Positions 1 through 14,635 of a stretch of 14,635 bases of DNA are shown here, one piece after another. Made by a program: the position numbers and the translations under genes. The stretch is from positions 1 to 14,635 of the IMG/VR virus record IMGVR_UViG_2693429762_000010. The stretch is one strand, 5' to 3'. The notes beneath the pieces were generated by a model, which was not told where the DNA came from, ran no database searches, and saw nothing but the letters and a program-made list of their open reading frames with translations. How positions within the stretch are numbered: position 1 is the stretch's first letter; every line of letters starts with the position of its first letter. Origin of the DNA: a virus (Duplodnaviria; Heunggongvirae; Uroviricota; Caudoviricetes).

Positions 1-171
1 TCAATAAATCCCATCATTGCGATCAACCTCATCCTTAACCATTGATGCGAGCAGTTCTTCCAGTTTCTGCGCTGATAGCTTTACCTGGTGATCTTCAGCA
101 TCTTCCCGGGCTATTGTGGTTCGCGCAGTGGCTGATTTTGCTGACATCACCACAGGGGGCAGACGGACCAT
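1..171 (-). CDS. hypothetical small protein (48-56 aa; ORF could extend to 282)
   Basis: Minus-strand ORF ending in TGA at 1-3 (window starts on its stop). In-frame ATGs at 145-147 and 169-171, the latter preceded by GGAGG about 10 nt upstream. No recognisable motif; product not recognised. Confidence 0.3.
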   Translation of the reverse strand: MVRLPPVVMSAKSATARTTIAREDAEDHQVKLSAQKLEELLASMVKDEVDRNDGIY

Positions 172-235
172 TGAACCATGGCCTCCGGAACAAATAAGGG
201 CAAAAATAACAACCACTATCGAAAGCTCACAAACT

Positions 236-475
236 AACCGCAGCACGTTCCTGCATACGACGTGTCTGCGGCATAATCCCAATGATTACTCCCTGACAGG
301 ATTTGCAGGCCACTCAATATCAGGTGCAGTTGATGTATCAACACGATTCAACAATACCCGATATTTATTCCATGCCTCCAGCAACGATCTTTCTTCCTCC
401 GTTGCGATTTCCAGATCTACAGCATCCTGCAGTGACGCAATATACTCACTGAATTCCTGGATGTAGAACTGTGTG
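236..475. repeat. direct repeat copy A (3' end of tfa plus downstream stem-loop)
   Basis: About 240 bp aligns by eye with 1284-1524 at roughly 85-90% identity, same orientation. Includes a degenerate copy of the GC-rich hairpin CCGCAGCACG...CGTG(T)CTGCGG. Confidence 0.7.
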
Positions 476-555
476 GTGACGGTCTTCCAGCCATTCGGCT
501 CCTGCTGTATCGAAGCATACCAGGCTATTTCAATATCGCTATGCTGCGGCAGCAT
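286..555 (-). pseudogene. tfa: tail fibre assembly protein C-terminal fragment (tfa', TfaX-like)
   Basis: 89-aa ORF whose last ~55 aa ([48 protein letters not shown]) nearly duplicate the C-terminus of the full Tfa at 1335-1919. The N-terminal ~35 aa are unrelated and the ORF is far shorter than the ~194-aa full protein. Confidence 0.6.
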
Positions 556-582
556 TTAACCCCTTGTAATTCATCGCCATAA

Positions 583-611
583 TTGATTTAATTCACAAAT
601 AAAACTATAAC
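583..611 (+). promoter_or_regulatory. putative sigma70 promoter for the methyltransferase gene
   Basis: TTGATT (583-588), 17-bp spacer, TATAAC (606-611) directly upstream of the ORF. Sequence match only. Confidence 0.3.
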
Positions 612-623
612 ATGGTGAAATCA

Positions 624-1280
624 ATGAAAAAAAACACAGATGATGGGGCTAAAATTTACACACCACTTACCCTAAAGCTTTATGACTGGTGGGTTTTGGG
701 AGTATCAAATCGGCTTGCATGGGGATGTCCTACAAAGGAACACCTTCTTCCACACTTTCTGGAACATGTAGGTAACAACCATCTGGATATTGGTGTTGGA
801 ACTGGGTTTTACCTTACTCACGTACCTGAGAGTAGTCTGATATCTTTAATGGATTTGAACGAAGCTAGCCTGAACGCGGCATCTACAAGGGCTGGGGAAT
901 CAAAAATTAAACATAAAATTAGCCATGATGTTTTTGAACCTTATCCCGCGGCGTTACATGGTCAATTTGATTCCATTTCCATGTTTTACCTTCTTCACTG
1001 CCTGCCTGGAAATATATCTACAAAAAGCTGTGTAATACGCAATGCGGCGCAGGCCTTAACTGACGATGGAACTCTATACGGAGCCACAATTCTTGGCGAT
1101 GGAGTTGTGCACAATAGCTTCGGTCAAAAACTGATGCGCATTTACAATCAGAAAGGCATCTTTTCAAACACAAAAGATTCCGAAGAAGGCTTAACACATA
1201 TACTCTCAGAGCATTTCGAGAATGTTAAAACCAAGGTTCAAGGTACTGTAGTAATGTTTTCCGCTTCAGGGAAAAAATAG
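624..1280 (+). CDS. class I SAM-dependent methyltransferase (YbcY-like by synteny)
   Basis: 218-222 aa ORF on the strand opposite the late genes. Glycine-rich motif I DIGVGTG plus hydrophobic YLLHCLPG block typical of Rossmann-fold SAM methyltransferases. GGTGA 5 nt upstream of the ATG at 624; an alternative ATG at 612 has no SD. Sits between tfa and tfa' as ybcY does in E. coli K-12 DLP12 (from memory). Confidence 0.75.
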   Translation: MKKNTDDGAKIYTPLTLKLYDWWVLGVSNRLAWGCPTKEHLLPHFLEHVGNNHLDIGVGTGFYLTHVPESSLISLMDLNEASLNAASTRAGESKIKHKISHDVFEPYPAALHGQFDSISMFYLLHCLPGNISTKSCVIRNAAQALTDDGTLYGATILGDGVVHNSFGQKLMRIYNQKGIFSNTKDSEEGLTHILSEHFENVKTKVQGTVVMFSASGKK

Positions 1281-1283
1281 CAT

Positions 1284-1524
1284 CCAACCGCAGCACGTTC
1301 TTGCTTAAGACGTGCTGCGGCATAATCCCAATGATTACTCCCTGACAGGGTTCGTAGGCCACTCAATATCAGGTGCAGTTGATGTATCAACACGGTTCAG
1401 CAACACCCGATACTTTTTCCAGGCTTCCAGCAATGAGGTTTCTTCCTCCGTTGCAATTTCCAGATCTGCAGCATCCTGAAGCGGCGCAATATGCTCACTG
1501 GCTACCTGCATCAGGTTGTTTTTT
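1284..1524. repeat. direct repeat copy B (3' end of tfa plus downstream stem-loop)
   Basis: Partner of 236-475; the two copies bracket the methyltransferase gene. Confidence 0.7.
1288..1320. terminator. GC-rich stem-loop between convergent methyltransferase and tfa genes
   Basis: CCGCAGCACGTTCTT / AAGACGTGCTGCGG forms a ~14-bp stem with one bulge and a 4-nt loop, 8 nt after the methyltransferase stop and 15 nt after the tfa stop. No immediately adjacent U-tract on either strand, so terminator function is uncertain. Confidence 0.4.
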
Positions 1525-1919
1525 GTTTCTTCCGCCTCCCGGATCCGGAACATTTTTTCTGCTTCCGTATCCTTCACCCAGGCTGTGCCGTTCCACTTCT
1601 GAAACTCCCCTTCCGGCGATAACCAGGTAACATTTTCCGGTAACGGACCGAGTTCAGAAATAAATAACTCGTCCCCTGACGCTACGTCATAAACCGTTTT
1701 ACCCCGATGGTCTTCAACGAGATGCCACGATGCCTCATCACTGTTGAAAACAGCCACAAAGCCAGCAGGAATATCTGGTGGTGCAATATCGGTACTGTTT
1801 GCTGGCAGACCTGTATGAGGCGGAATATATGCGTCACCTTCACCAATAAATTCATTAGTTCCGGCCAGCAGATTATAAATTTTTATGGTCCGTGCTTGTT
1901 CACTCATTCTGAATGCCAT
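1335..1919 (-). CDS. tfa: tail fibre assembly protein Tfa (lambda Tfa / TfaE / TfaQ family)
   Basis: 194-aa ORF starting [39 protein letters not shown] and ending [11 protein letters not shown], closely matching remembered E. coli prophage Tfa proteins. Its ATG overlaps the stop of the upstream tail-fibre ORF (TAATG). Confidence 0.92.
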
Positions 1920-2850
1920 TATGCAAGCCTCACAATATAGTTAAATGCGATGTTTTTGACGGTGTTTTCCGCGTTACCAGCAGCGTTAACGGTGATGGTG
2001 TGTCCATGTGAACCAATCGCAACGGAGTGCGTATGCGCACCAATACCTACAGTATGTGCATGTGCGCCAGAACTTGCTGCAGTACCAGACAGCGAGTGGG
2101 TATGAGCACCTGCTGACTGTGTCTGAATACGTTGATAATACGATCTACGGGAAGAAGTCCCCGGGCTTACTTGATACTGTGAATCCTGGACATAAGTGAA
2201 CCCACCGCCATCATAAAATGCTAACGCAGAACCGCCGCCTCCTGGCCAACGAATACCATTACCATGAGTATGATCACCGGCAGACCCCGTAGCAAGGTCA
2301 TAGGCTGCCTTTACCGACTTTGGCGTTGCCGCCAGCATTTCAGATGTGCTGTTGGTCGCGTTGCTAAGCTGAACTATCCCTTTCTGTGCTGTCGTTGCAT
2401 CCTGTGCGGTGTATTTCCCGTTAGCCAGCTCATACGCGGCCTTAACGGCTTTTGGCGTTGCCGCCAGTGACTCGGAAGTGCTGTTAGTCGCACTGCTGAG
2501 CTGAACTATCCCCTTTTTCGTCGTGCTCGCATCCTCAAGCGCCACGGCGGATGCAATATCCTCTGCCCGTTTTGCCGCTGTCTCAGCGCGCGTTGCCGCG
2601 GATTCCGCCGTACTTTTGCTCTGAGCTGCCGCCGTCGCACTGCCAGCTGCCTCTGTCGCCTTCGTGGATGCCGTCGTGGCGCTGCCCTTCGCTGCTGACG
2701 CCTGTCTGGTCGCCTCATCTTTTGAAGCAGACGCAGATGATGCCGATGACGCCGCCGAACTGGCGGACGATGCGGCAGCCGTTTTTGAGGATTCTGCGCT
2801 GGTTTCCGACGCTTTCGCGTTCGTCTCGGATGTCTTCGCTGCGGAATCCC
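1919..2850 (-). pseudogene. stf: side tail fibre (Stf) C-terminal remnant, 5' part deleted
   Basis: Frame ends ...[31 protein letters not shown] with the His-rich HTHS repeats and duplicated KGIVQLS(S/N)ATNSTSE motif of lambda Stf. Homology ([12 protein letters not shown]...) runs upstream in-frame to a stop at 2879-2881 with no credible start; the natural N-terminal ~2/3 is missing. Confidence 0.75.
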
Positions 2851-2859
2851 GCTGCTGCC

Positions 2860-2937
2860 TGTGGCGGTGTGAGCCGGATCATTACCGGCAAAAATATGTA
2901 CTTCCGCACGCTGTTCAGTGATGGTTTTCGTCACCAT
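2860..2937 (-). pseudogene. D: head decoration protein D N-terminal fragment (D'), fused out of frame to stf'
   Basis: ATG at 2935-2937 opens [26 protein letters not shown], matching the lambda gpD N-terminus (…GNSDPAHTAT…) from memory. Homology stops after ~26 codons and the stf frame takes over near 2850-2860. Confidence 0.5.
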
Positions 2938-2973
2938 ATTGTTAAAACCTCGTATTGATGTTCAGCACTGACT

Positions 2974-4425
2974 TCATGGCATGGCCATGAGCATTTTCAC
3001 GTCCGCATCACCGTCTTCTGACGCCTGTGACACGCCCCCCTGGACCGCAGCCGGTGAATGGTTCGCCATGAAATGTTCAAACAGGGCGGTTGTGGATGCA
3101 GAGACCGGTTCTGCCTTACCTGATCCCGCAGCCAGCACAGCCCGGGCGCTCTCCACGGTCATTCCCGGGCAGGCAGCCAGCTGTTCAGCCTGCGCCTCAG
3201 CCCCTTTTGCCTCATCCAGGGCCATGATCTGATCACGGAGTGATGGTCCGGCATTCGCCTGCGGTGAAGCAGCCAGGATCGGGCGGGCTTTTTCCACCGT
3301 CATCTCCGGCATCGCCGCCAGCGTTACTGCCAGTTGTTCACGACCGTTCGCTTCTTCACACGCCATAATGCGATCGGCTTCACTCTGCGCGGATGCCACC
3401 GGCTGCTGCGGTGCCGCCGCGGCCAGAATCGCCCGGGCCTGTTCAACGCTCATGCCCTGTTGCCCTGCCAGCATCGTGGCAAGCTGTTCACGTCCTTTCG
3501 CTTCCTGGCATGTCAGGATCCCCATCACTCGCTGGTTCTCCTGCACGGCGGCTTCCGTTGCAGTTAATTGCGGCATAGTGCCTCCTCTGACATTACTGTT
3601 CAGCGCCGTGGCCATCACACTGATGGCATCCGACGCATTGATTAATTCATCCGCCAGCCCGGCCTCAATGCCGGACTGACCTTCAAAAACGGCGGCCTCT
3701 GTTCCCGTGACCGCATCCACAGACAACCCGGTATACATCGCCACTTTTTCGGCAAACATCCGGTGCGCCGCATCAATCCGCTGCTGCATATCCTGGCGAA
3801 CCTCTGCCGGCAACGCTTCAAACTGATTGCCATCCACCTTGTGCGCCCCGGCATAAATCAGCGTGATATCCACACCGGCCTGCGCCAGATGACCGGCATA
3901 GCTGACATGGCTCATCATCACGCCAATGGAGCCGATACGGGATGTCTGGGTAACCAGCCGTCGGGAGCAGGCCGACGCCAGCAGCATGGCTGCAGAACAG
4001 GCCGTGTCATTGCACAGTGCCCAGACCGGCTTCTGCTGACGGAGGCGGTAAATCATGTCAGCGCAGTCAAACGCGCCGGCGGCCTGCCCGCCCGGACTGT
4101 CAATGTCCAGCAGTATGCCCCGCACCTGGCTATCTGCCATTGCCTGCTGAAGACAGGCGACAATGCCGTCATAGCCAGTCATTCCGGAAAATGGCCGCAT
4201 CCCCCCCAGCCGGTGCACCAGCGTGCCGCTCACCGGCAGTACCGCAATACCGTTCACCACCCGGTAAACACGGGCCGGTCGTTTACCTCCGGCCATGTAC
4301 TCGTCCGTTTCAGCCAGCATTCCGGGAGCATCAAGCTGTACCTGCTGTTGTGGTACCGAAAGACTTGCTGCCCCCATCTCGCGCCCGAGCGCGCAAAAGA
4401 AAACCCGCGCATAGCAGGGCCGCAT
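2974..4425 (-). CDS. C: lambda gpC-like head maturation protease/scaffold (S49 ClpP-like), natural N-terminus deleted
   Basis: YARVFFCAL…NGIAVLPVSGTL…GILLDIDSPGG…AFDCADMIYR…PVWALCNDTACSAAMLLASACSRRLVTQTSRIGSIGVMM aligns with remembered lambda gpC, with a repeated C-terminal EEA(K/N)GREQLA motif. Homology begins at YARVFF; the first in-frame ATG (4423-4425) lies in out-of-frame portal-derived sequence, so expression is doubtful. Confidence 0.7.
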   Translation of the reverse strand: MRPCYARVFFCALGREMGAASLSVPQQQVQLDAPGMLAETDEYMAGGKRPARVYRVVNGIAVLPVSGTLVHRLGGMRPFSGMTGYDGIVACLQQAMADSQVRGILLDIDSPGGQAAGAFDCADMIYRLRQQKPVWALCNDTACSAAMLLASACSRRLVTQTSRIGSIGVMMSHVSYAGHLAQAGVDITLIYAGAHKVDGNQFEALPAEVRQDMQQRIDAAHRMFAEKVAMYTGLSVDAVTGTEAAVFEGQSGIEAGLADELINASDAISVMATALNSNVRGGTMPQLTATEAAVQENQRVMGILTCQEAKGREQLATMLAGQQGMSVEQARAILAAAAPQQPVASAQSEADRIMACEEANGREQLAVTLAAMPEMTVEKARPILAASPQANAGPSLRDQIMALDEAKGAEAQAEQLAACPGMTVESARAVLAAGSGKAEPVSASTTALFEHFMANHSPAAVQGGVSQASEDGDADVKMLMAMP

Positions 4426-4552
4426 CGGCACTCTGCGCCGGTGGCAACCACTCCGCCATTTGCCCGCCAAATCCTGCGCCGCCCCCGTTGTAGCTGAGAC
4501 TCTCACGAAGCGGAACGCCGTTCACATCAATCAGGACAGGCGTTCGTTTCAT
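4406..4552 (-). pseudogene. B: portal protein B N-terminal fragment (B'), ~49 codons
   Basis: MKRTPVLIDVNGVPLRESLSYNGGGAGFGGQMAEWLPPAQSADAALL matches the lambda gpB N-terminus (…GGGSGFGGQLRSWNPPSESVDAALL…). Sequence then switches to gpC homology in another frame; start overlaps the W stop in the usual ATGA arrangement. Confidence 0.6.
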
Positions 4553-4755
4553 AACCTCACTCCCAGCGGACGACGGCGACGTCGGGTTGTCCCCAGTACC
4601 GACTCCGCATCATTGATCGCCCGGTTAAGCTCATCCAGAGAAGCCGCCGTATATTCAATTCTGCGACCATCTTTCTGGACAGACACCACCCGTTTACCGG
4701 TTAATAAATCAAGGCGCGCCTGACGCAGCGCCTGTAGTTCAGCGACTGTAACCAT
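4549..4755 (-). CDS. W: head-tail joining protein W
   Basis: 68-aa [42 protein letters not shown]… aligns along its length with lambda gpW (…[23 protein letters not shown]…). Confidence 0.85.
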   Translation of the reverse strand: MVTVAELQALRQARLDLLTGKRVVSVQKDGRRIEYTAASLDELNRAINDAESVLGTTRRRRRPLGVRL

Positions 4756-6379
4756 TCACTCCTCCGGACAGCTTCGCTGCCAGTTCTTTAAGGGTTGGCC
4801 GGGTCGTCTCTTCTTCCCGGGATTTTGCCAGTACAGCCAGATCAAGCTGCCAGCGTTGCACGGACACACGTAATGCCGCGTAGGCATACACCAGGCAGTC
4901 CAGCGCTTCGTTACGCCGCTTTTTGTTATCCCACAGCAGACGCATCTTTCCTTTTTCCCACTTCTCCACAAGCTCTTCCGCGACCAGTTGCTGCGCCTCT
5001 GTCTGCGAAAAAATCTCCGGATCATCAGGAAAACGGATGGCATACGACGTGGCTTCATCCGCAGACGTGGGATCGGCTTTCATACGGGCATAGAGAATTT
5101 CTTTTGCGGTGTCCGTCCCCACTTCACACAGATACACGCCCCGCTGATTGCGGGTTTTCGGCATGGTGATCACCGGCTTGCCATAGACAGATGCGCCTTT
5201 TACCGGCAGCACCCGGAAAACACCGTGTTTTTTTGACCTCTGATAGACAATTTCACCATCGATCCCCCCGGTGTCCCAGCAGACACGGGAAATGGTCATT
5301 TCGGTTCCGTCTGCATGGCAGTATTTTTTGTTGATCGCCGCATCCACACGTAACAGCGTCTCTTCCTCATCGGGACGGCCCATAATGATGATTTTATCCA
5401 CCAGAAAAGCTTCCTCTCCCGGTGCCCATCCCCAGACATACATCTCAAAACGGTTTCGCTGCGAGTCAATGCCCGCCGTCAGATAAACCACCCGGGCTGG
5501 CACCGCCGCCGTGTAATGCACGACCTTATCCATCAGTACCTGGTGATCGAGTTTTTCGCCCACGGCCTCTTCCCAGGTCTCGCCCAGCGTGGTGTTCACA
5601 AAGGTTTTCAGGCCGTTGGGATCTTTCAGTGCATCCAGCCAGTCATAGACTATCTGTACCCAGGTGGTGAACGGACTGTACGCCGTCCAGATATGGAACG
5701 TGATGGAGCGCGGCGGCGGAATTTCATTATCCGCGGCGCTGAAAAACGTCAGACCGTCACGGGTCCACATCCCCGTGTTTTCACAGATCCACCGCCCGTT
5801 GCTCTGGTCAAGCTCAGACTGATGGATCACGCAGCCATGATGTTCACAGAGGTAGAAAACGCTTTCGGGGCTGTCCTTCTCCCATTTAAGGCCAAAAGGC
5901 GTGGATTCATCGCCAAATTTCAGATACTGCTCCTCCCCACAGTGTGGGCAGGGCACATAAAAACGCATGAAATGCGCCGACTCGTTGGCCGCTTTTTCGA
6001 TCTGGCAGGTGCCTTTGATTTTAGGCGTCGAGCCGCGAATGGATTTGGGCCATACAGAGCCCTCAATACGTTTATCCCCAAGCAGGGTTGGCGAACCCTC
6101 TTTTTCGACATCCGGTTCGAACGAGGAAAGTTCGTCATAGCAGACCACGTCCACGGATTTTTCACGGTAGTTTTTAGCGGCAGCCCCGCCCAGGCACCAG
6201 AAGCCCACGCCCGATGAAAAACGTTTCAGCGTGAGGGTATTATCACGATGTTTACGCCCAAACCACGGTGCAAGATCGAGTAAAACCGGCACATCCCTGA
6301 TCGTGGGTTCCACATGAGATTTCATAAAATCTTCAGCAGCAGAACCCCTGACTCTGCCAGGCGGTGATGGTCCTGACAT
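4739..6379 (-). CDS. A: terminase large subunit gpA homolog lacking the N-terminal ~90 residues (Nu1'-'A deletion fusion; probably non-functional)
   Basis: [17 protein letters not shown]…[18 protein letters not shown]…[16 protein letters not shown]…[10 protein letters not shown]…[12 protein letters not shown] closely matches lambda gpA from about residue 95 onward. The N-terminal region, including the Walker A segment remembered near residue 80, is absent. In-frame ATGs at 6379 and 6325. Confidence 0.85.
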
Positions 6380-6422
6380 CAACGCCAAAAATATCGGCCA
6401 GTTTTTTCTTATTGACGTTCAT
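6333..6422 (-). pseudogene. nu1: terminase small subunit Nu1 remnant (first ~26 codons only)
   Basis: ATG at 6420-6422 opens [26 protein letters not shown] (lambda Nu1: MEVNKKQLADIFGASIRTIQNWQEQG…), then runs into a stop after 3 more codons where gpA-homologous sequence begins. Confidence 0.6.
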
Positions 6423-6559
6423 ACACTCCCCCGGGAACCAGAAAGGATCTGAAAATGGCGTTTTCTAACAAAAACAGCCTTTGTCAGATCCTTTTATATT
6501 TTTAAAATTCTATTGATAATCAATCAGTTAAAAAGAAGAAGAACGGATCTGATTTTTCC

Positions 6560-6620
6560 CTAAAAATTTTCATAAATAGCGAAAACCCGCGAGGTCGCCG
6601 CCCCGTAACCGGTCGGATCG
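6560..6620 (-). other. cos site (cosN cohesive-end sequence with flanking cosQ/cosB regions)
   Basis: Minus strand reads GGGGCGGCGACCTCGCGGGTTTTCGCTATTTATGAAAATTTT, matching the lambda left end. The 12-nt cohesive-end sequence GGGCGGCGACCT lies at 6592-6603, about 170 bp upstream of the Nu1' start. Confidence 0.8.
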
Positions 6621-6639
6621 CCGGAAAGGACCCACGAAA

Positions 6640-6654
6640 TGATAATGATTATCA
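6640..6654. promoter_or_regulatory. perfect 7-1-7 inverted repeat TGATAATgATTATCA (Fur-box-like)
   Basis: Matches the TGATAATnATTATCA half-site model of the Fur box; about 37 bp from cosN and 155 bp upstream of the RHH-like ORF. Could be a coincidental AT-rich palindrome. Confidence 0.3.
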
Positions 6655-6809
6655 TCTATATAAGGTTTATCACAACATGTGTGTACGCCATCAAACCACG
6701 AGAAATAATCAATTATGACGCAGGTATCGTATTAATTGATCTGCGTCAAATTAACGTAAAAGCAACTTCAGATAATACAAATCAGCAACACTGAATATGG
6801 GGAAACATT

Positions 6810-6995
6810 ATGTCATCAAAGAACAGAACCCGCAGAACAACAACCCGCAACATCCGATTTCCAAACCAGATGATTGAACAAATTAACATCGCTCTTGATC
6901 TGAAAGGTTCAGGAAACTTTTCAGCGTGGGTTATTGAAGCCTGCAGAAGAAGGCTGTCAACAGAGAGTTCGGGTATGAATTACATAATTAAGTAA
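6810..6995 (+). CDS. small predicted ribbon-helix-helix DNA-binding protein
   Basis: 61-aa ORF with GGGGAA upstream. Pattern RNIRFPNQMIEQINIALDLKGSGNFSAWVIEACRRRL fits the beta-strand/helix/turn/helix layout of Arc/MetJ/CopG proteins. Equivalent small ORF remembered at the lambda right end. Confidence 0.55.
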   Translation: MSSKNRTRRTTTRNIRFPNQMIEQINIALDLKGSGNFSAWVIEACRRRLSTESSGMNYIIK

Positions 6996-7127
6996 CATGG
7001 TGTTCACAGAACACGCAGTTACCGGACACATCAGTTTTCCATTCGCTCCCCGGCAGTACAGGCTTCCCCTCTGACGGGATAGCCTGAAAAAATAACACAG
7101 AAAATTATTTGTTATAATTAATATAAC

Positions 7128-7268
7128 TTACTCAAAAAAAAGCGACGAGAAAATCAGCATCAACGAACAATAAGCGCCAATACGTGATAACAAATGGCAG
7201 CCATATTTATCTGCAGTATAAGCAATGGACAGGATAACCACACCAGAAACCGTCAGCATAAAATCCAT
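7128..7268 (-). CDS. hypothetical small hydrophobic protein (46 aa)
   Basis: ORF below the track's size cut-off found by manual translation: MDFMLTVSGVVILSIAYTADKYGCHLLSRIGAYCSLMLIFSSLFFE, with GGGGAAG 6 nt upstream. One or two predicted TM segments. Could be chance. Confidence 0.3.
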   Translation of the reverse strand: MDFMLTVSGVVILSIAYTADKYGCHLLSRIGAYCSLMLIFSSLFFE

Positions 7269-7618
7269 TTGAACTTCCCCGGACAAAATCGACTCATCTA
7301 AAGATTTACAGCTCTTTTTATTATCAATATGTTAAAAGTAAAATAAACAGATGTTCAATAACACGAATACAAAAACGTGCTGAAATTCAATGAATCCATT
7401 TCTGTGTCATCAATTAATAGTGATAAACATCCGGCTTCTTCCACCATCGCACCGGACAGGCGACTATGAGGGGACAACGCCGCGCTCCGTTAACGCGGTA
7501 AACCCCGGTGTGTATCGTTTTTGATTATCCCCGCACACTCGCGCAGAGGAGTCTCCCTGTCGGGCTGCGGTCTCTGTTAATGAGGGAATACAGCGACGAT
7601 ACGGCGCATCAACAAAAC

Positions 7619-8077
7619 TTATTTCAGGCACTGAGTGCGGATATAGTCCTGTGCCCCTTCCAGTTGCTTGTGCATCGTCATCAGCCGCTCTCTGAGGGTG
7701 AAATAATCCCGTGTAACGGTGTCTGCCAGTTGGGGGCCGGTTGCATTATCCACGCCGGAGGTGGTGGGGGCTTCACGCACGGAGCCTGGACAGGTGGCGT
7801 TGATCCGCAGGCGCTTACGACCAGCGGCAACATCAGCGCGCAGAGTTTCATTTTCAGCTCTCGCATCGGATAATTCCCTCGAGTATTTTGCATCGAGCGC
7901 AGCAACATCGCGCTGGCGCACCTGCATATCAGTAATGGTTGCGTTCGCCAGCTTCAGTTCACTGGCTTTGTTATCGCGCTGCGCTTTGTAGGTAATCGCG
8001 TTATCACGGTAATGGTCTGTTGCCATCCACAGCGCACCACAGGCCACCAGCAGAATAACGATAAACGCGGAAAGCAT
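7619..8077 (-). CDS. Rz: i-spanin Rz
   Basis: N-terminal TM segment [17 protein letters not shown] followed by [45 protein letters not shown]…, aligning with lambda Rz. ATG at 8075-8077; an in-frame GTG at 8092 is an alternative start. Confidence 0.85.
7681..7866 (-). CDS. Rz1: o-spanin Rz1 lipoprotein embedded in the +1 frame of Rz
   Basis: [61 protein letters not shown] has lipobox VVSAC with Cys at position 20 and the proline-rich core, as in lambda Rz1. Confidence 0.8.
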
Positions 8078-8088
8078 TCGGTTTATGT

Positions 8089-8220
8089 TCACCCCAGCAA
8101 CCCCGACGAAGACAACATCATCCAGGCCATGGAAAGAAAAAGAGCAACCAGCATTAGTGAAAATGAAATGCCGACAATTACACAGAGGATCTTCGCCAGC
8201 GTTATGAGTTTGTCTGACAT
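8089..8220 (-). CDS. hypothetical small membrane protein (43 aa)
   Basis: [43 protein letters not shown], single predicted TM helix. Strong SD GGGAGGA 7 nt upstream; stop abuts the Rz start region. Confidence 0.4.
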
Positions 8221-8234
8221 GCTTAATCCTCCCT

Positions 8235-8417
8235 TCACGATTTCAACGCAATGACCAGTTTTGCCAGCCCATACAGCATCGGGGACACAGCAACACCGAC
8301 CGCCACCCACTTAATGGCAAAAGCCAGTGCTCTGCTGATGTCATCAGTTACAGGCGCTTTCAGTTCAAGGCCATTTTTCATAGTCAACCTCAACAGAATT
8401 CGTTTATACTTCGCCAT
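8235..8417 (-). CDS. hypothetical small membrane protein (60 aa; alternative start at 8381 gives 48 aa)
   Basis: [60 protein letters not shown]: charged N-terminus, C-terminal TM segment. AGGGAGA immediately upstream of the ATG at 8417. Confidence 0.4.
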
Positions 8418-8450
8418 GTTCTCCCTTGCCTTACTCAAGGTCAGAAACAC

Positions 8451-8483
8451 AAAACCCCGCTTGGTGCCAACAAACGGGGTTTT
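8451..8483. terminator. candidate bidirectional intrinsic terminator between endolysin and downstream small ORFs
   Basis: AAAACCCCG…CGGGGTTTT inverted repeat with a ~15-nt loop, flanked by T-runs on both strands (TTTTACTTTT on plus, TTTTGTGTTT on minus). Only a 5-bp GC core, so weak. Confidence 0.3.
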
Positions 8484-8573
8484 TACTTTTATTCACTTAC
8501 GTTTCGCCAGTTCGCAGGATTTCGTGTTATCCGCCCGCGTGGCCATACCTTATTTTTCAGCAAAATATTCTGC

Positions 8574-9107
8574 TTATCTGTCGATTCCCCAGCACGCCAG
8601 CGCGCTCTCCTGGTCACGACGGGATACCTGACCATAACAGTTATTTGAGCGGATACGGCAGTCTCTGCCACCGTCCTTAATCCACCAGCGAATCGCCTCA
8701 CACGCTCCCCTGCGGTCACCAGCATTCAGCCGCTTATAAAACGTCGACGGGAAACACTTACCGGGGCCAATGTTATAGGGACAGAATGACGCTATACCCG
8801 CTTTCTGTGGTTCGGTCAGTGGAACTTTAATATTGCGCTCCACCCATGCCAGCGCCTTATCCCGTTCAATGGCATTAACCTGGTCGCATTTTTCCTTCGA
8901 CAGTTTCATGCCCGGAATAACAGGTTTACCATCCACCATTGTGGCACCGCGGCAGATGGTCCAGATACCCGCACCATCACGGTATGCCGTTGTGTGGTTA
9001 CCTTCTTTTTCATCCAGAAACTGGTCGAGAATATCAGGCGCAGGCGCACCGATGGCAATCAACGCCAGAACGGCAGCCGACAGGCCATATTTGATTTTGG
9101 TGTTCAT
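8574..9107 (-). CDS. R: SAR endolysin (GH24 lysozyme R, phage 21 / 933W type)
   Basis: 177 aa. N-terminal Ala/Gly-rich signal-anchor-release segment LSAAVLALIAIGAPAP followed by DEKEGNHTTAYRDGAGIWTICRG carrying the E…D…T triad arrangement of T4-lysozyme-like enzymes. Confidence 0.9.
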   Translation of the reverse strand: MNTKIKYGLSAAVLALIAIGAPAPDILDQFLDEKEGNHTTAYRDGAGIWTICRGATMVDGKPVIPGMKLSKEKCDQVNAIERDKALAWVERNIKVPLTEPQKAGIASFCPYNIGPGKCFPSTFYKRLNAGDRRGACEAIRWWIKDGGRDCRIRSNNCYGQVSRRDQESALACWGIDR

Positions 9108-9163
9108 GGATATTTATCAGGATTTATCGGTTCCGAATCCCTGGATATGTTAAATCTTCAGCC

Positions 9164-9190
9164 CGCCAGCGGTAGGACACTGGCGTTTTT
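9164..9190 (+). terminator. small hairpin plus T5 tract upstream of the 104-aa plus-strand ORF
   Basis: CGCCAG-(10 nt)-CTGGCG followed by TTTTT on the plus strand. Modest 6-bp stem. Confidence 0.25.
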
Positions 9191-9235
9191 CCTGATGGCT
9201 GAAATATATCTGACAATTTCAGTAGAGGATTAACC

Positions 9236-9550
9236 ATGCATAACGATCAACATAATTATGATTTATGCCTGCAAGCCATAAATGAGCGGGTAAAATCAGA
9301 GTGCCTCTTACTCCTCCCACAAGAACACGATGCAGTAAAATCCATTCAGGCTGAGCCGTATGGACATCTCACACCTGTGACTCTCGGCATTATCGCCAGA
9401 GCATTAACACAGCCCATGCTTATGCGTATTAAGACCAATATAAATAACTGGTTGAATGAAGAATTAAGCTACCTTGATTGTGAGTGGGACAATCATTACG
9501 CAAAAACACAAAAAGAACGCATCTTCAGTCGATTATCCAGCAACAGATAA
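9236..9550 (+). CDS. hypothetical protein (104 aa), opposite strand to the lysis genes
   Basis: ORF MHNDQHNYDLCLQAINERVKSECLLLLPQEHDAVKSIQAEPYGH… with good SD GAGGA 7 nt upstream. No motif recognised. Its stop lies 9 bp from the stop of the convergent 268-aa gene. Confidence 0.55.
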   Translation: MHNDQHNYDLCLQAINERVKSECLLLLPQEHDAVKSIQAEPYGHLTPVTLGIIARALTQPMLMRIKTNINNWLNEELSYLDCEWDNHYAKTQKERIFSRLSSNR

Positions 9551-9559
9551 CGAGCCACC

Positions 9560-10366
9560 TTATATACGCCCTTTCAGATAAGTCATCCCCGGCTGCATCC
9601 AGTCAACAGGTGCTTTCTTAAAGGGCGTATTATCAAAATCACGCAGAAGAGCCTCCAGCACAACTGCATCATTGTCAGCACCACTGGCCATCATTTCAAT
9701 CTCAGCTGCTACCTGCAGATATCCCATGCAACGACCAATGCGCTTCATCAGCCCCTGCTTTTTATTGTTCTTCAGGTAATCAATGGCAAATTCAATGAGC
9801 GCCTCACTATGCTGGTGCGATGGCGGTGTTAATTTCCCATTTTCTGAGATGGTTATTTTCCCGCCATCTCCGTATACAACAAAGGATGGCCGGTTACACT
9901 CCCATTCCTGATCTTTATCAGGTGCAGACGCAATAAAATAACGTTTATTTCCTTCCTCTCCGGCACTTTTAACCGTAATGGAGTACTCAGACTGCAGACA
10001 AGACGCCTCTTTTTCTGACCGCAGTGTTGACGGCGGCATCTTCAGAGAACCAGTAATTCTTCCCGGTAGCTTTCCTTTGTAGGTTATCAACACATCCTGC
10101 GCCTCTAAAATTATGGGGCGCTTTTCCGGCAACGGTTCGTTCCCTTCACATAACCCGGCAGCAACATCCATGAAAAACTGCTTCGCCTGCTTTTTCGCCT
10201 CAGCTTCGTAAAACTCCAGCGTGGCACCTTCAGTACGGTCAAGACTAATCGCCACATTTGGCAACAACAGTGACGGATACCCACCAATTTCCAGTACCAC
10301 AGTAACAGTAATCTTATCCGGGTAATTATTTATCCCTTTAACAACCAGTTCGTATTTTTTCTTCAT
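9560..10366 (-). CDS. hypothetical protein (268 aa) inserted between holin and endolysin
   Basis: Long ORF starting 4 nt after the holin stop, with GGGGAGAG SD inside the holin 3' end (translational coupling). Soluble, Lys/Glu-rich, no TM segments, no Walker or other catalytic motif recognised. Confidence 0.7.
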   Translation of the reverse strand: MKKKYELVVKGINNYPDKITVTVVLEIGGYPSLLLPNVAISLDRTEGATLEFYEAEAKKQAKQFFMDVAAGLCEGNEPLPEKRPIILEAQDVLITYKGKLPGRITGSLKMPPSTLRSEKEASCLQSEYSITVKSAGEEGNKRYFIASAPDKDQEWECNRPSFVVYGDGGKITISENGKLTPPSHQHSEALIEFAIDYLKNNKKQGLMKRIGRCMGYLQVAAEIEMMASGADNDAVVLEALLRDFDNTPFKKAPVDWMQPGMTYLKGRI

Positions 10367-10370
10367 CGCT

Positions 10371-10586
10371 TTACTCTCCCCGCGCCGCCTTACGCCGGTC
10401 CTCTCTGATTTTGAAATACAGGTTAGTCAGATATGTCAGCAGCCCAAACAGCAGACTCCCCAGCACGCCTATTGCCGCCCACTGAGACGGGGAAACCCTG
10501 TCCAGCAACTGCAGGAACCAGTAGCCCGTTCCCACCGCTGACGTGGTGTATGACACACCTGTTGTGATTTTTTCCATCTGGTACAT
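10371..10586 (-). CDS. S: pinholin S (S21 / 933W S family), dual-start
   Basis: 71 aa: [71 protein letters not shown], two TM segments and a charged C-terminus. Met1 and Met4 give the usual antiholin/holin dual start. The ORF-track N-terminal extension to 10691 is not part of the protein. Confidence 0.9.
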
Positions 10587-10621
10587 ACCCCGTCTCCCGT
10601 TATCCGGAAGCTGACAACAAT

Positions 10622-10650
10622 AAAAAAGCCACCAGTTAAGTACTGATGGC
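10622..10650 (-). terminator. rho-independent terminator downstream of nanS-p
   Basis: On the minus strand GCCATCAG-(7-nt loop)-CTGGTGGC (8-bp stem with one G.U pair) followed directly by TTTTTTATT. Lies between the nanS-p stop (10736) and the holin start (10586). Confidence 0.5.
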
Positions 10651-10735
10651 TCTGATAACTCATGCAGGCATCTCAGACGACCCACTGACACTACCGGTGA
10701 GTTTAACGATACCTTCCATTTGACTGGCTCACTTT

Positions 10736-12589
10736 TTATGATGATGCTGGTGCATTTATCTCCAGCACCAGACTTTCTATCTCAACGCCATACGCTGCAT
10801 TTTTGGTAATATCCGTCAGCGTCAGCGCATTCAGCCCCAGTGTCAGACTGTCTTTTATGACCTGGAATGCCGGGCCAGCCACTCCATTCAGTTTCGGAGT
10901 AACCGTGGCACTGCCGGCGGTGAACACCAGCTCCAGCGTCTGCCAGTCGTTACTGTAATTCCCGAACTCGCCCAACTTTGTGTTTCCTGCTTTCCTGTGA
11001 TGCATCAGATTCAGTTTGCCGTCTGTGGTCTGGGTGAAGAACGACATCAGGAACGGGTTACCAGTCCCGGTCATCGCCACGACGTCAGGTAACGCTACAT
11101 CGGTATACAGATAAATTCCCAGACCGAACTGGTTGTTGGTCAGTGCGCCTGACAGTCGAAACTTACAGCTCAGTCTGCCACCCCGTGTCAGCAGGGAGAC
11201 TGCGTCATCCACCGGGCGCGTCAGGGACCAGGCTTTATTGCTCTGCTTGGCGATCTTAAATACACCACCCGACAACTGAATTCCGCCGTCCTTAATGGTC
11301 CAGCCCTGCGCAGCAGCCTCTCCGGCTGTCGGCAGCAGGGAGATTGTGCGAACGGACGTATCTGCAGACGGACCCGATGGCGTGTCGCCGCCGGGCGAGG
11401 GTTTGATTTCCGGTGCCTTACCACTGATGAAGGCTGAGGTGCGCCCGGCTACGTTCAGAATAGCAGTTGCCATACGATCGGGAATAATGCCACGACGCGC
11501 CCATGAGCTGAAATGCGTCGGGCGATTTGATGATACCCAGTTTTTGTTCGTTCGGGATGCCGAACCGTAATAACCAGACCCGGCAATATCAGGATCTTCT
11601 GACGGGTTGTTTGTCGGTGTATTAACTCCGCTACCATCGGTCATAAAGGGAACAAAATAAATCTGCTGGGATTCTTTACCTTTATATGCACCATATACCA
11701 CTTCATATTGCGTACCGTGTTCTTGTTTCCACGCGTATGTCGTGTCGCCACAAATCCAGGGGACTGATGCCGGACTTCCACCGTGACACTGCGCTGCCAG
11801 CCCGGCAAGGTCAGCACGGAACTGCTGTACCATTGCAAGAAATGCTGCTGGCTGCTGGGCGTAACTGGCATTCGTCATATCGAATTCCCCCTGCATCCAG
11901 CATATCGCCAGCAAAACGTTTTTCGGGTTTTTCTGCAATGCTGCCTTCGTGCGGAAAAGCAGATCCTGATATAACGGCTTACCCACTCCCCAGCGAGCCG
12001 AATCCTGACTGGCCCCCGTGGACTCGCTGAATGTCCCCTCCGTGCCCTGGGTGAATGCCGAACCACCACGACAGCATGGTACCAGCAGGATCCCCGCATT
12101 ATTAGGGATATACGGAAGCAGTTTTTTGGCAATATGTAAGCCCTGGCCGACACAGCCGTACTGCCCTTTGCTCAGGTCAGCCCGGGGATGGTTAATCGTA
12201 CTCATATCCTGAACATCATGCAGACAATGGTCAGCAGGAATGATGTCGTTAAATACGCATACTTCACCACCGGGAGTCACTGTGTTACGACGGGCCAGTT
12301 GCTTAATGCGCGGATGGGGCGCATCGTATGAATCCGGAAGCGGAAGCCCTTCACCGTAAGCCATGGCATTGGACTGCCCGGCCAGTACGATGACGTAGTA
12401 CCACTCCGGCTCAGTTGCACCACTGACGACCACATCACCTTCTGCTGCAATCGCCTGCATCAGGGTATAAGGGGTTATGGCCACCGGACTACCAAACGGC
12501 TGCCAGCCCTCTTTCAGTTTATGTGTCAGCTTTTCCGCAAGATCTGACGGCGACGCCGCCCTGACAACATCATAGTGTTTAAATGCCAT
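10736..12589 (-). CDS. nanS: prophage sialate O-acetylesterase NanS-p (DUF1737 N-terminal domain plus SGNH/SASA esterase)
   Basis: 617-622 aa. Starts [22 protein letters not shown]…; esterase block [13 protein letters not shown] (GQSN nucleophile motif). Matches remembered NanS-p proteins found between stx/tRNAs and the lysis genes in EHEC prophages. Start placed at the second ATG (GGAAAG SD); the first ATG at 12604 lacks an SD. Confidence 0.88.
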
Positions 12590-12849
12590 GGTTCTTTCCA
12601 CCATCTGAAAAATGATTCTTTAAAATACCTGACATGTAATACAGAAAAAACACAAAACCATACCTTAATTAAAAACCTCATCATCAAGCAGATATGCATG
12701 GATAAACTACAAGACGAGATATAAACCACCCTGCATTTAAATAAACAATAAACAACATCAGAAAAATAATTCTGCTCTATGGTTTACAATCAAAAATATC
12801 ATTTATACTTTTCAGAACATCACCAGCAAGGCATAAACAAGGAAACTAA

Positions 12850-13185
12850 ATGAAGTGGATTGTGATTGATACAGTTATCCAGCCATCATGCGGAATATCT
12901 TTTTCAGTCATATGGAGTAAAATAAAATTAATAATCTGGTATCAATCGGATGCTTTCTTACCTCCTGAAAGTATATTTACACTGACTCACACAGGCATCA
13001 TGCTCAATAACAAAGTGCTGCCTGTAACCATTTACAACGTAGTACCATTCAATAAAACATTCTGGAATTTAATCAAAAACAGCCAGGAATGCCCTACAAA
13101 TACAGATAACGTATTGAATGAATGCTTTAATAACCGTTGCACTCTGCAAATATGTCCTTATGGGCTAAAACAACAAAGTCCATAA
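12850..13185 (+). CDS. hypothetical protein (111 aa), AT-rich cargo gene
   Basis: Uninterrupted ORF in AT-rich DNA with strong SD AAGGAAA 7 nt upstream. Hydrophobic N-terminus and a C-terminal four-Cys cluster (C-x9-C-x4-C-x4-C). 6 of 13 Ile codons are ATA. No family recognised. Confidence 0.55.
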
Positions 13186-13220
13186 GGAGTTTACTCACAT
13201 CTGACAAAATCAATATAAAC

Positions 13221-13240
13221 AGCCCCTCCGGAGAGGGGCT
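13221..13240. terminator. perfect 8-bp GC-rich stem-loop (AGCCCCTC-CGGA-GAGGGGCT)
   Basis: 35 nt after the 111-aa ORF stop. A U-rich tract follows on the minus strand only (GTTTATATTGATTTTG), so it is more plausibly a minus-strand terminator or an RNA-stabilising hairpin. Confidence 0.3.
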
Positions 13241-13632
13241 GGAGAGTGGCGCTATGTGCCATTGCATGGTGCCGGGTGCCTCCCGGTGAATTCAGTACCA
13301 GCACCTGAATCCGCGATTATCCCATATACCTACTCGCTGATTGCCCCTCCGCACAGGGGGATTCACCATGCCAGTTTCTTTTAACAAACTCCCCGCAAAC
13401 CAGACAACAGTCAACCGCCTGAATTGTGAAGTATTTAAAAATTTCTCCCGCTAACTGATACCCGGCTAACAGTCTGGCGTTTTCTTTTTCAGCAACGGGA
13501 AAGCAGCAACCACCACACCCGCCACCAGCACACCGTCAGCCAGCACTGACATTATCCGGCTGCTGCAATGCCATTCACAAAAACAGTAAGCAATCACTTT
13601 TTACCGTAACCGGTGATAATCCAGATATGTAT

Positions 13633-13989
13633 CTACCCCAGATGAGTAATCCGAAGTTCATCCATACCACAGGTCCTGGCTATTCTGTTGTACTCCTGAA
13701 CAAGAGCAAATAATTCTGAATTAGCCACCATGAACTCATCGCAAACCCTCTGTATAGCATCACTATTCAGAATAATAACGTCTCTTCCCGAAAGACGATC
13801 AGGAGTACAGAACAAAACTGTCAAACGGCTGAAGGCCTTTGCTCGTTCTGCATTGACTATATCAATACGCTGCCTAAGGATGAAACACCCCGACGCCTCA
13901 TCAATATTCACTCTACCCACACCATATGAATGATAAATATTTAATGCTGAAAAAACCATTAGACCGTATAACAAACACTCAATCAACAC
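13633..13989 (-). CDS. hypothetical protein (118 aa), AT-rich cargo gene
   Basis: Stop-free 357-nt frame in AT-rich DNA. GTG start without a clear SD; alternative in-frame ATG at codon 11. Rich in AGA/AGG/ATA codons. No family recognised. Confidence 0.4.
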   Translation of the reverse strand: MLIECLLYGLMVFSALNIYHSYGVGRVNIDEASGCFILRQRIDIVNAERAKAFSRLTVLFCTPDRLSGRDVIILNSDAIQRVCDEFMVANSELFALVQEYNRIARTCGMDELRITHLG

Positions 13990-14096
13990 TTAACAGAACT
14001 TTTATTTTTGACAAACATATAATATTTTCAACAATATCCTGAGCCAGGTATATTTCAGTATAAGGCTCTGCCGAAAGGAATCTGGAAGAATGAATA

Positions 14097-14173
14097 TGGC
14101 GCGCTGTACTGGATTCGAACCAGTGACCGATTGCTTAGAAGGCAATTGCTCTGTCCGGCTGAGCTAACAACGC
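14097..14173 (-). tRNA. tRNA-Arg (anticodon UCU)
   Basis: Minus strand GCGTTGTTAGCTCAGCCGGACAGAGCAATTGCCTTCTAAGCAATCGGTCACTGGTTCGAATCCAGTACAGCGCGCCA: 7-bp acceptor stem, D-arm, anticodon loop CUUCUAA, T-loop GGTTCGAATCC, encoded CCA. Resembles argU-type and Stx-phage arg tRNAs. Confidence 0.9.
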
Positions 14174-14273
14174 TGAATACCGATAATGGACCGCCATCGG
14201 GGACCCGCCCCCGCACCAACAACCCTGTTATCGTGTCGTCTGCTCTTCCTGATAAGCTAATGGCGGTTTGTGA

Positions 14274-14349
14274 TGGTGGCCCTTGCTGGATTTGAACCAG
14301 CGACCTGGCGATTATGAGTCGCTCGCTCTCACCACTGAGCTAAAGGGCC
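14274..14349 (-). tRNA. tRNA-Ile2 (anticodon CAU, ileX/ileZ-like, reads AUA after lysidine modification)
   Basis: Minus strand GGCCCTTTAGCTCAGTGGTGAGAGCGAGCGACTCATAATCGCCAGGTCGCTGGTTCAAATCCAGCAAGGGCCACCA: full cloverleaf, anticodon CAU. Much closer to remembered E. coli ileX than to elongator tRNA-Met. Confidence 0.88.
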
Positions 14350-14398
14350 GGAAGCAGAATAATAATGGTGCGTAATTAATTCTGCAATCTCATCCGTT

Positions 14399-14635
14399 TC
14401 AAACGATTAAATCCTGAACTTCCCTGACTGTCTGCTCAAAACGTCCGGTCTCCAGTTCAACGCCAATCGCACGACGCCCGAGCGCCAGTGCAGCTTTTAC
14501 CGTTGAACCTGAGCCCATAAAAAAATCTGCAACCAGGTCATCATCTGCATAGTACGTCAGCGCCGGCCACTGGTTCAGGGCGTATGCGAACGCTTTCGCC
14601 AGTTCTGAGTGTCGCGACAGGGTTTTCATCTTTTC
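14399..14635 (-). CDS. DNA methyltransferase (N6-adenine/N4-cytosine, beta-class), C-terminal part; gene runs off the window end
   Basis: C-terminal 76+ aa with FxGxG SAM-binding motif (DFFMGSGST) placed near the C-terminus as in beta-class DNA MTases. Frame stays open to the window edge. Position upstream of the tRNAs matches remembered Stx-phage layout. Confidence 0.75.
   Translation of the reverse strand, partial: EKMKTLSRHSELAKAFAYALNQWPALTYYADDDLVADFFMGSGSTVKAALALGRRAIGVELETGRFEQTVREVQDLIV

Follow-up and report, generated by a model that had tools for sequence, protein, structure and literature searches.

The window analysed here, a stretch of 14,635 bp (positions 1 to 14,635 of IMG/VR record IMGVR_UViG_2693429762_000010), carries nanS-p, a gene for a sialate O-acetylesterase, between a region of AT-rich DNA on its upstream side and, on its downstream side, a strong hairpin followed by the gene of a P21-type holin. 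This arrangement raises the question of whether nanS-p is a transcription unit of its own, expressed in the lysogen and closed by its own terminator, as an earlier note on this DNA had proposed, or a gene of the late operon whose flanking elements belong to its neighbours. On balance the latter is considered probable: the hairpin would be a Rho-independent terminator forming the 5' boundary of the P21-type lysis cassette, at which it would act as a gate to lysis, and nanS-p would be a gene of the late operon. The window corresponds to the late region, read on the minus strand, of a lambda-like prophage that is partly deleted; all late genes under discussion lie on that strand, and the iraM-like gene upstream of nanS-p lies on the plus strand (Table 1).

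The core of the hairpin was found to be a stem of 9 bp, GCCAUCAGU/ACUGGUGGC (10650-10628, minus strand), made up of eight Watson-Crick pairs and one G-U pair and closed by a 5-nt loop, ACUUA. An A-U/G-U extension, in which AGA pairs with the first three U of the tract, brings the stem to 12 bp, and the tract itself is a U6 (10627-10622) followed by AUUG. The hairpin is placed between the stop codon of nanS-p (10736) and the ATG of the holin gene (10586), 82 nt past the former, with 35 nt separating the end of the U-tract from the latter. The position, the 8-bp stem and the U6 tract given for a strong terminator by the earlier note were therefore essentially exact. The predicted fold of -17 kcal/mol compares with -4.5 ± 1.9 kcal/mol for shuffled sequences (z = -6.7), none of 200 shuffles being its equal. 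When strong hairpins were defined as those with at least nine pairs, at least five of them G-C, and at least six T within the next eight bases, three sites were found in the window, all on the late-gene strand, compared with none in 100 dinucleotide shuffles. Judged from its sequence, the hairpin is very probably a working intrinsic (Rho-independent) terminator.

The conservation of the hairpin was examined in the DNA before each holin gene, in loci gathered by means of NanS-p relatives, holin relatives and exact copies of the hairpin. The 263 holin loci yielded 86 distinct upstream sequences of 300 nt (40 distinct in the last 85 nt), and all of the variants fold into a hairpin with a T-rich tail behind it, approximately 36-50 nt before the holin ATG, the tail being weaker in variants of the GGGGC type and a U7 in many relatives. 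The elements preceding the hairpin vary, being nanS-p with the spacer here termed type A, a gene for the small acidic protein DUF826, or a PasA/PasC module. In phage 933W the order is nanS-p, an antisense terminator, a small open reading frame (ORF) and DUF826, followed by the hairpin GGCCAUCAGUAAACAGCUGCUGGCC-U5, and in prophages PP2 and PP5 of enteropathogenic Escherichia coli (EPEC) E2348/69 modules of the antisense small RNAs (sRNAs) PasA/PasC precede the sense-strand hairpin. In an alignment of 18 distinct hairpin variants over 11 pairs, pairing was retained in 96% of cells, compared with 27-66% when the 3' arm was slid; five of the 11 pairs had changed on both sides, and the covariation score exceeded that of all 500 shuffles. 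Since compensatory changes have preserved the pairing although the upstream contexts are unrelated, selection acts on the hairpin as a structure, and this structure is linked to the holin and not to nanS-p. Its occurrence before P21-type holins after DUF826 in 933W and after PasA/PasC in EPEC is at odds with the suggestion that the terminator is nanS-p's own.

The same conclusion was reached from the side of the esterase gene. The nanS-p ORF spans 12604-10736, and its second ATG, at 12589, is the conserved start: it is used by the NCBI Prokaryotic Genome Annotation Pipeline (PGAP) in the closest genome and marks the point at which similarity to other loci begins, whereas the in-frame ATG further upstream, at 12604, lacks conservation. 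The similarity that nanS-p loci share stops at both the ATG and the stop codon. The flanks were found in all combinations, with an iraM cassette upstream accompanied by a type A spacer downstream (30 combinations) or by a Pas-type one (5), and other upstream DNA likewise accompanied by type A (28) or Pas-type (2). Since upstream and downstream types reassort, the conserved block is the nanS-p ORF and not a unit of promoter, gene and terminator; the terminator travels with the holin.

The AT-rich region upstream of nanS-p was confirmed, with a length of 245 bp from the first ATG (12605-12849) or 260 bp from the conserved one and a GC content of 28.5-32.5%. However, as the gene on its far side (12850-13185) lies on the opposite strand, the region is a divergent intergenic spacer inside a larger AT-rich block of ~630 bp (about 13220-12590). 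This block consists of the spacer and the iraM-like gene, whose orientation opposes late transcription and whose protein is annotated in identical form in EPEC E2348/69 PP5. Its GC content is 0.29-0.35 compared with ~0.5 for its neighbours, and its boundaries, at the terminator of an STnc100-family sRNA and at the nanS-p ATG, are sharp, so that in composition, boundaries and independent orientation it is the iraM cassette (12590-13220) that has the character of a moron. Comparison of the 700 nt before nanS-p across 156 loci showed the whole iraM arrangement to be common to 92. The remaining 64 cease to resemble the window at the nanS-p ATG (position 700, 701 or 708, with one exception at 686) and match it again only over the last 26-69 nt of STnc100, the end of which lies ~160-290 nt (most often ~233) before the nanS-p ATG as against 630 nt in the iraM arrangement. 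One of the non-iraM spacers holds the antisense sRNA AgvB, a 'convergent sRNA' arrangement of the kind described by Tree et al. (PMC4104026). The whole of the AT-rich DNA is a single inverted iraM cassette, which has been inserted in the interval from the STnc100 terminator to the start codon of nanS-p.

A scan for consensus promoters on the nanS-p strand from 13220 to 12590 returned no sigma-70-like site, and with a position weight matrix (PWM) the best score on that strand of the spacer was 6.46, lower than in 99.7% of composition-matched shuffles. The best promoter-like sites were instead found on the iraM (plus) strand at 12742-12770 and 12783-12809, and no sequence upstream of the nanS-p ATG was conserved across contexts. 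In these motif scans nanS-p thus has no promoter of its own directly upstream, and the earlier reading of the AT-rich DNA as a nanS-p promoter region gives way to that of an inverted cassette depleted of sense-strand sites. It is possible that promoters directed into nanS-p and the holin gene are avoided, which would account for the depletion on the nanS-p strand (12590-12860). A PhoP-type or K-12-like iraM promoter in the spacer was considered and set aside; at the DNA level only the coding region resembles K-12, and no regulatory inference is drawn.

Published expression data also point to a late gene and not, as had been suggested, to something other than a simple link in the late operon. 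The nanS-p mRNA has been reported to increase by 1-2.4 log units (10-250 fold) with mitomycin C in parallel with stx2a, and control by Q was inferred by the authors (PMC10462455). The phi24B homologue, gp84, is abundant in the virion and decorates the capsid through its DUF1737 domain (bioRxiv 10.64898/2026.04.10.717836), although the transfer of this structural role to the lambda-like, partly deleted prophage of the window is uncertain. For uninduced EPEC, DESeq2 baseMean values are given by published RNA-seq. In PP5, which is 97.2% identical to window positions 13448-10733, iraM has a value of 11.7, the esterase gene 46.7 and the holin gene 3.0; in PP2 the esterase gene has 102 and the holin gene 3.5, and PasD2, an sRNA encoded upstream, has 11017. 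As esterase counts exceed holin counts in the uninduced state, weak transcripts appear to drop off before the holin, which fits a terminator at this point. The basal esterase level could be explained by ~0.1% read-through of the upstream sRNA terminator or by spontaneous induction, and a dedicated nanS-p promoter is for this reason not needed.

Taken with these data, nanS-p is mainly a late gene between two terminators, in an ordinary late-operon layout, and not a self-contained unit. A third strong terminator lies inside the lysis cassette (8483-8451), and a terminator at a gene boundary is therefore the norm in this operon and no mark of autonomy. Because the hairpin lies before the holin gene, unmodified polymerase should stop at it and Q-modified polymerase should read on. 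In the lysogen, unmodified polymerase from any upstream source, be it leaky upstream terminators, moron or sRNA promoters or spurious starts in AT-rich DNA, would stop at the holin-proximal hairpin, by which the lethal holin-endolysin-spanin genes would be kept silent. The STnc100 terminator would in addition isolate nanS-p from unmodified transcription arriving from upstream. Upon induction, Q-modified polymerase from pR' would ignore tR', the STnc100 terminator, the holin-proximal hairpin and the hairpin at 8483-8451, and nanS-p, the lysis genes and the head genes would be transcribed as one late operon. Termination at the hairpin, its read-through under Q and its protective function are what we infer from this layout.

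Several other explanations have to be weighed against this one. The morons of lambdoid phages are insertions between late genes that comprise an ORF together with a promoter and a terminator, for example bor, lom and stx1 (Juhala et al., 2000, cited by Tree et al., PMC4104026); nanS-p could be a self-contained moron of this kind, with a spacer promoter active in the lysogen, a terminator of its own and read-through under Q in lytic growth. The presence of terminators on both sides of the gene would agree with this, as would the excess of esterase over holin reads in both uninduced EPEC prophages, the benefit of the enzyme to lysogens on Neu5,9Ac2 (reviewed in PMC8065619) and the frequent occurrence of promoters in AT-rich DNA. 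However, the nanS-p strand of the spacer is without a sigma-70-like site and is depleted of them relative to shuffles. The spacer is part of the iraM cassette, and resemblance to other nanS-p loci ceases at the ATG. The terminator goes with the holin, the nanS-p flanks reassort independently, and the reads per kilobase are very low, so that the slight read-through of PasD/STnc100 noted above (baseMean 11017 against 102), or spontaneous induction, could suffice. A self-contained moron is consequently rated as unlikely. Of the autonomous unit first proposed, the terminator and, provisionally, the logic of read-through are retained, while the autonomy and the promoter are unsupported. Certain points nevertheless weigh against the late-operon reading. 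Transcripts of nanS-p are present in uninduced EPEC at a locus 97% identical to the window, and the growth phenotype of lysogens on Neu5,9Ac2 requires some expression without full induction (PMC8065619). A PWM scan could pass over a promoter that is activator-dependent, served by another sigma factor or silenced by H-NS. Finally, the holin sample is skewed to close relatives (at least 97% protein identity), and the statement that the hairpin is present in all contexts is for that reason limited to the P21-type holin studied.

The hairpin might instead act mainly at the RNA level, either as the end and Hfq module of an sRNA derived from the nanS-p 3' untranslated region (UTR) or as a processing or stability element setting the 5' end of the lysis mRNA. 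In related prophages the intergenic slot does give rise, on the opposite strand, to sRNAs bound by Hfq (PasA and PasC), the U6-7 tail is of a type to which the proximal face of Hfq binds, sense fragments of the EPEC PP2 spacer from just upstream of the homologous hairpin occur in RIL-seq chimeras, and the distance from hairpin to holin ATG is conserved. Against this, the part of the Sakai table consulted lists no Hfq-bound sRNA between nanS-p and holin in Sp5, a prophage whose 933W-type relatives are without type A, and a separate small hairpin already covers the Shine-Dalgarno region of the holin. A mainly RNA-level role is thus very unlikely, and it would add to the terminator reading without replacing it, because the 3' end of such an sRNA would arise by termination anyway. 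A broader proposal, in which the hairpin is at once a conserved 'lysis gate' and a recombination boundary and the type A 3' UTR yields a Hfq-binding sense sRNA, is regarded as distinctly unlikely in its entirety; if it were true, the modules swapped upstream of the gate would be nanS-p with a bare 3' UTR, DUF826 and antisense PasA/PasC, and an sRNA derived from the nanS-p 3' UTR would tie esterase expression to host regulation in lysogens. That the hairpin is a chance inverted repeat without function can be practically dismissed. Weak terminator-like matches are indeed common, a simple scan returning 21 sites in the window where 14.9 ± 3.9 are expected, but hairpins of the strong class are absent from shuffled sequence, the z-score is extreme and compensatory changes are seen across unrelated contexts.

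Other RNAs were also considered as the owners of the hairpin. It is not the terminator of PasA or PasC, which lie on the opposite strand (Table S6, PMC8550237) and whose sequences are absent from the window, probes for the module finding no match at up to 3 mismatches. HnrS (EcOnc10-12) was rejected as a sense RNA ending at the hairpin, being several kb away and on the strand of the sRNAs antisense to late genes. One locus (L256) that had been taken for a bare pR'-tR'-S arrangement, with the hairpin as an ancestral tR', was found to have a 654-aa nanS-p and a Pas-like antisense module upstream and was likewise rejected.

Both terminators inside late operons under Q control and morons located between pR' and S are well known from textbooks. 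Like the hairpin of the window, lambda tR' and the 933W terminators upstream of stx2 combine a G+C-rich stem with a U-tract on the late strand downstream of pR', and the terminators of Q-antiterminated operons, of which there are several per operon, should halt polymerase that is unmodified and let Q-modified polymerase pass. Unlike lambda tR', however, the hairpin is located not at pR' but immediately before the holin gene, several kilobases downstream. In the 933W record four terminators are annotated upstream of stx2 and none before S, and a literature search of limited coverage found no paper describing a holin-proximal terminator. The locus resembles that of morons in having accessory genes between pR' and the lysis genes, and the iraM cassette resembles a classic inverted moron. 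It differs in that the promoter half of nanS-p was not found in the scans, the terminator is shared with the holin module and the phi24B product is a virion protein. Antisense sRNA modules of the PasA/PasC kind have been described from the interval that separates the esterase and holin genes (Pearl Mizrahi, 2021, PMC8550237; Zhu, Shabalina and Storz, 2026, bioRxiv). They thus have the same location as the type A spacer, and they too end in an intrinsic terminator, one that abuts the nanS-p stop codon. In contrast to the hairpin of the window they are on the opposite strand, convergent with nanS-p, and their loci still carry the sense hairpin before the holin.

That the lysis genes stay silent in a lysogen is usually put down to tR' alone. 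If the proposed function is correct, a second conserved terminator before the holin would explain how accessory genes and sRNAs such as stx, STnc100/PasD and iraM can be active between pR' and S without leakage into the holin gene. It also follows that a flanking terminator should not be taken as proof of lysogenic expression of NanS-p; the start site of the basal esterase mRNA bears on whether NanS-p is of use to the lysogen, to the virion or to both.

Table 1. Features of the window discussed in the text, in the order of late transcription.
Feature	Position	Strand	Remarks
tRNA-Ile(CAT)	14349-14274	minus	
tRNA-Arg(TCT)	14173-14097	minus	
Small DUF3927 gene		minus	name from nearest genome
STnc100-family sRNA, PasD relative	13211..13400	minus	Rfam RF02076; covariance-model score 132.4 bits (threshold 47)
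STnc100 strong terminator hairpin	13241-13220	minus	-20.3 kcal/mol
iraM-like anti-adaptor gene, 111 aa	12850..13185	plus	PGAP product name; 62% identity to K-12 IraM (E = 4e-53)
AT-rich divergent spacer, iraM (plus)/nanS-p (minus)	12590..12849		best promoter-like sites on iraM strand
nanS-p, sialate O-acetylesterase, 617 aa	10736..12589	minus	DUF1737, SASA and DUF6645 domains
nanS-p 3' untranslated spacer, 'type A', 82 nt	10654..10735	minus	near-invariant among relatives
Very probable intrinsic terminator adjoining holin	10622..10653	minus	core stem 10650-10628, extension, U6
Second small hairpin, CUUCCG-GAUAA-CGGGAG	10594..10610	minus	over Shine-Dalgarno-like GGAG before holin
Class II holin S, P21 type, 71 aa	10371..10586	minus	first lysis-cassette gene; PF04971, E = 9e-33
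Third strong terminator-like hairpin, between lysozyme gene and Rz	8451..8483	minus	-18.9 kcal/mol

The small hairpin in the holin leader has a centroid fold of -8.7 kcal/mol, no better than that of shuffles. It is present in most related loci with unchanged stem arms and a variable loop (GAUUG, AGUA, UUGCG); loci of the PasA/PasC type have a different holin leader. The holin is of the dual-start type (Met1 and Met4), and the small hairpin is a better candidate for its translational control than the terminator hairpin and may set the ratio of holin to antiholin. The 'sdi' stem-loop of lambda S and the dual-start control of the class II holin S21 are known from work of the Young laboratory. The likeness, an RNA structure upstream of a dual-start holin gene, fits the small hairpin, which overlaps the Shine-Dalgarno region, and not the terminator hairpin, which lies ~35-40 nt further upstream and has a U-tract. 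The K-12 holin genes essD and essQ have different leaders, with an unrelated terminator-like hairpin ~115 nt before essD in DLP12, and serve as an analogy only. In EPEC E2348/69 PP5 (locus L291, ~3590-5860), ISEc13 and IS200C are inserted right after the U-tract of the hairpin and split the terminator from the holin leader.

With regard to the type A spacer, its slot is occupied in other prophages by the PasA/PasC module. On the plus strand at 10700-10738 an interrupted 8-bp stem with a U5 ends exactly at the nanS-p stop codon; it is weak, with a fold no better than shuffles, and may be a decayed remnant of a PasA/PasC-type terminator, which has the same position. Derivation of the spacer from the 3' end of a DUF826 gene is not claimed, the alignment being unconvincing upstream of the hairpin. 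In three loci (L018, L024 and L042; e.g., L018, 4349-6400) nanS-p and its upstream iraM cassette are fused to virion/baseplate genes of Mu- or P2-type appearance, without spacer, hairpin or lysis cassette after nanS-p, an arrangement that is recombinant or deleted.

The hairpin between the lysozyme gene and Rz has a stem of 13 bp, AAAACCCCGUUUG...CAAGCGGGGUUUU, with an A-run and a U-run on its flanks, and may be a bidirectional terminator within the lysis cassette. On the late strand the window begins with the end of a DNA methyltransferase gene, followed by tRNA-Ile, tRNA-Arg, the DUF3927 gene and the STnc100-family sRNA. The inverted iraM-like gene, nanS-p, the terminator hairpin, the holin gene, a DUF1327 gene and the lysozyme gene come next, and the order ends with the hairpin at 8483-8451, Rz, a lambda gpA-type terminase, a gpC-type protease and tail-fibre genes. 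The window is closest to E. coli B19374 (99.3% identity) and to a non-Stx prophage from the lineage of the O104:H4 outbreak (99.2%). In B19374, Q is located ~3.5 kb upstream of nanS-p, beyond the range of the window, and a tR'-like hairpin is present on the late strand 85 nt past Q.

Portal, major capsid and tail-tube genes were not found among the window ORFs scanned. In the region 2974-6388 (minus strand), the gpA-type terminase matches the ATPase profile from position 67 onward only, and the gpC-type protease almost directly adjoins the tail-fibre genes. A 222-aa ORF for a SAM-dependent (S-adenosylmethionine) methyltransferase (612-1280, plus strand) lies antisense to the late genes amid the tail-fibre genes, and a full-length match to the Rfam IS009 RNA (224 bits; 1378-1576, minus strand) is located inside the tail-fibre assembly gene region (ORF 1335-1919).

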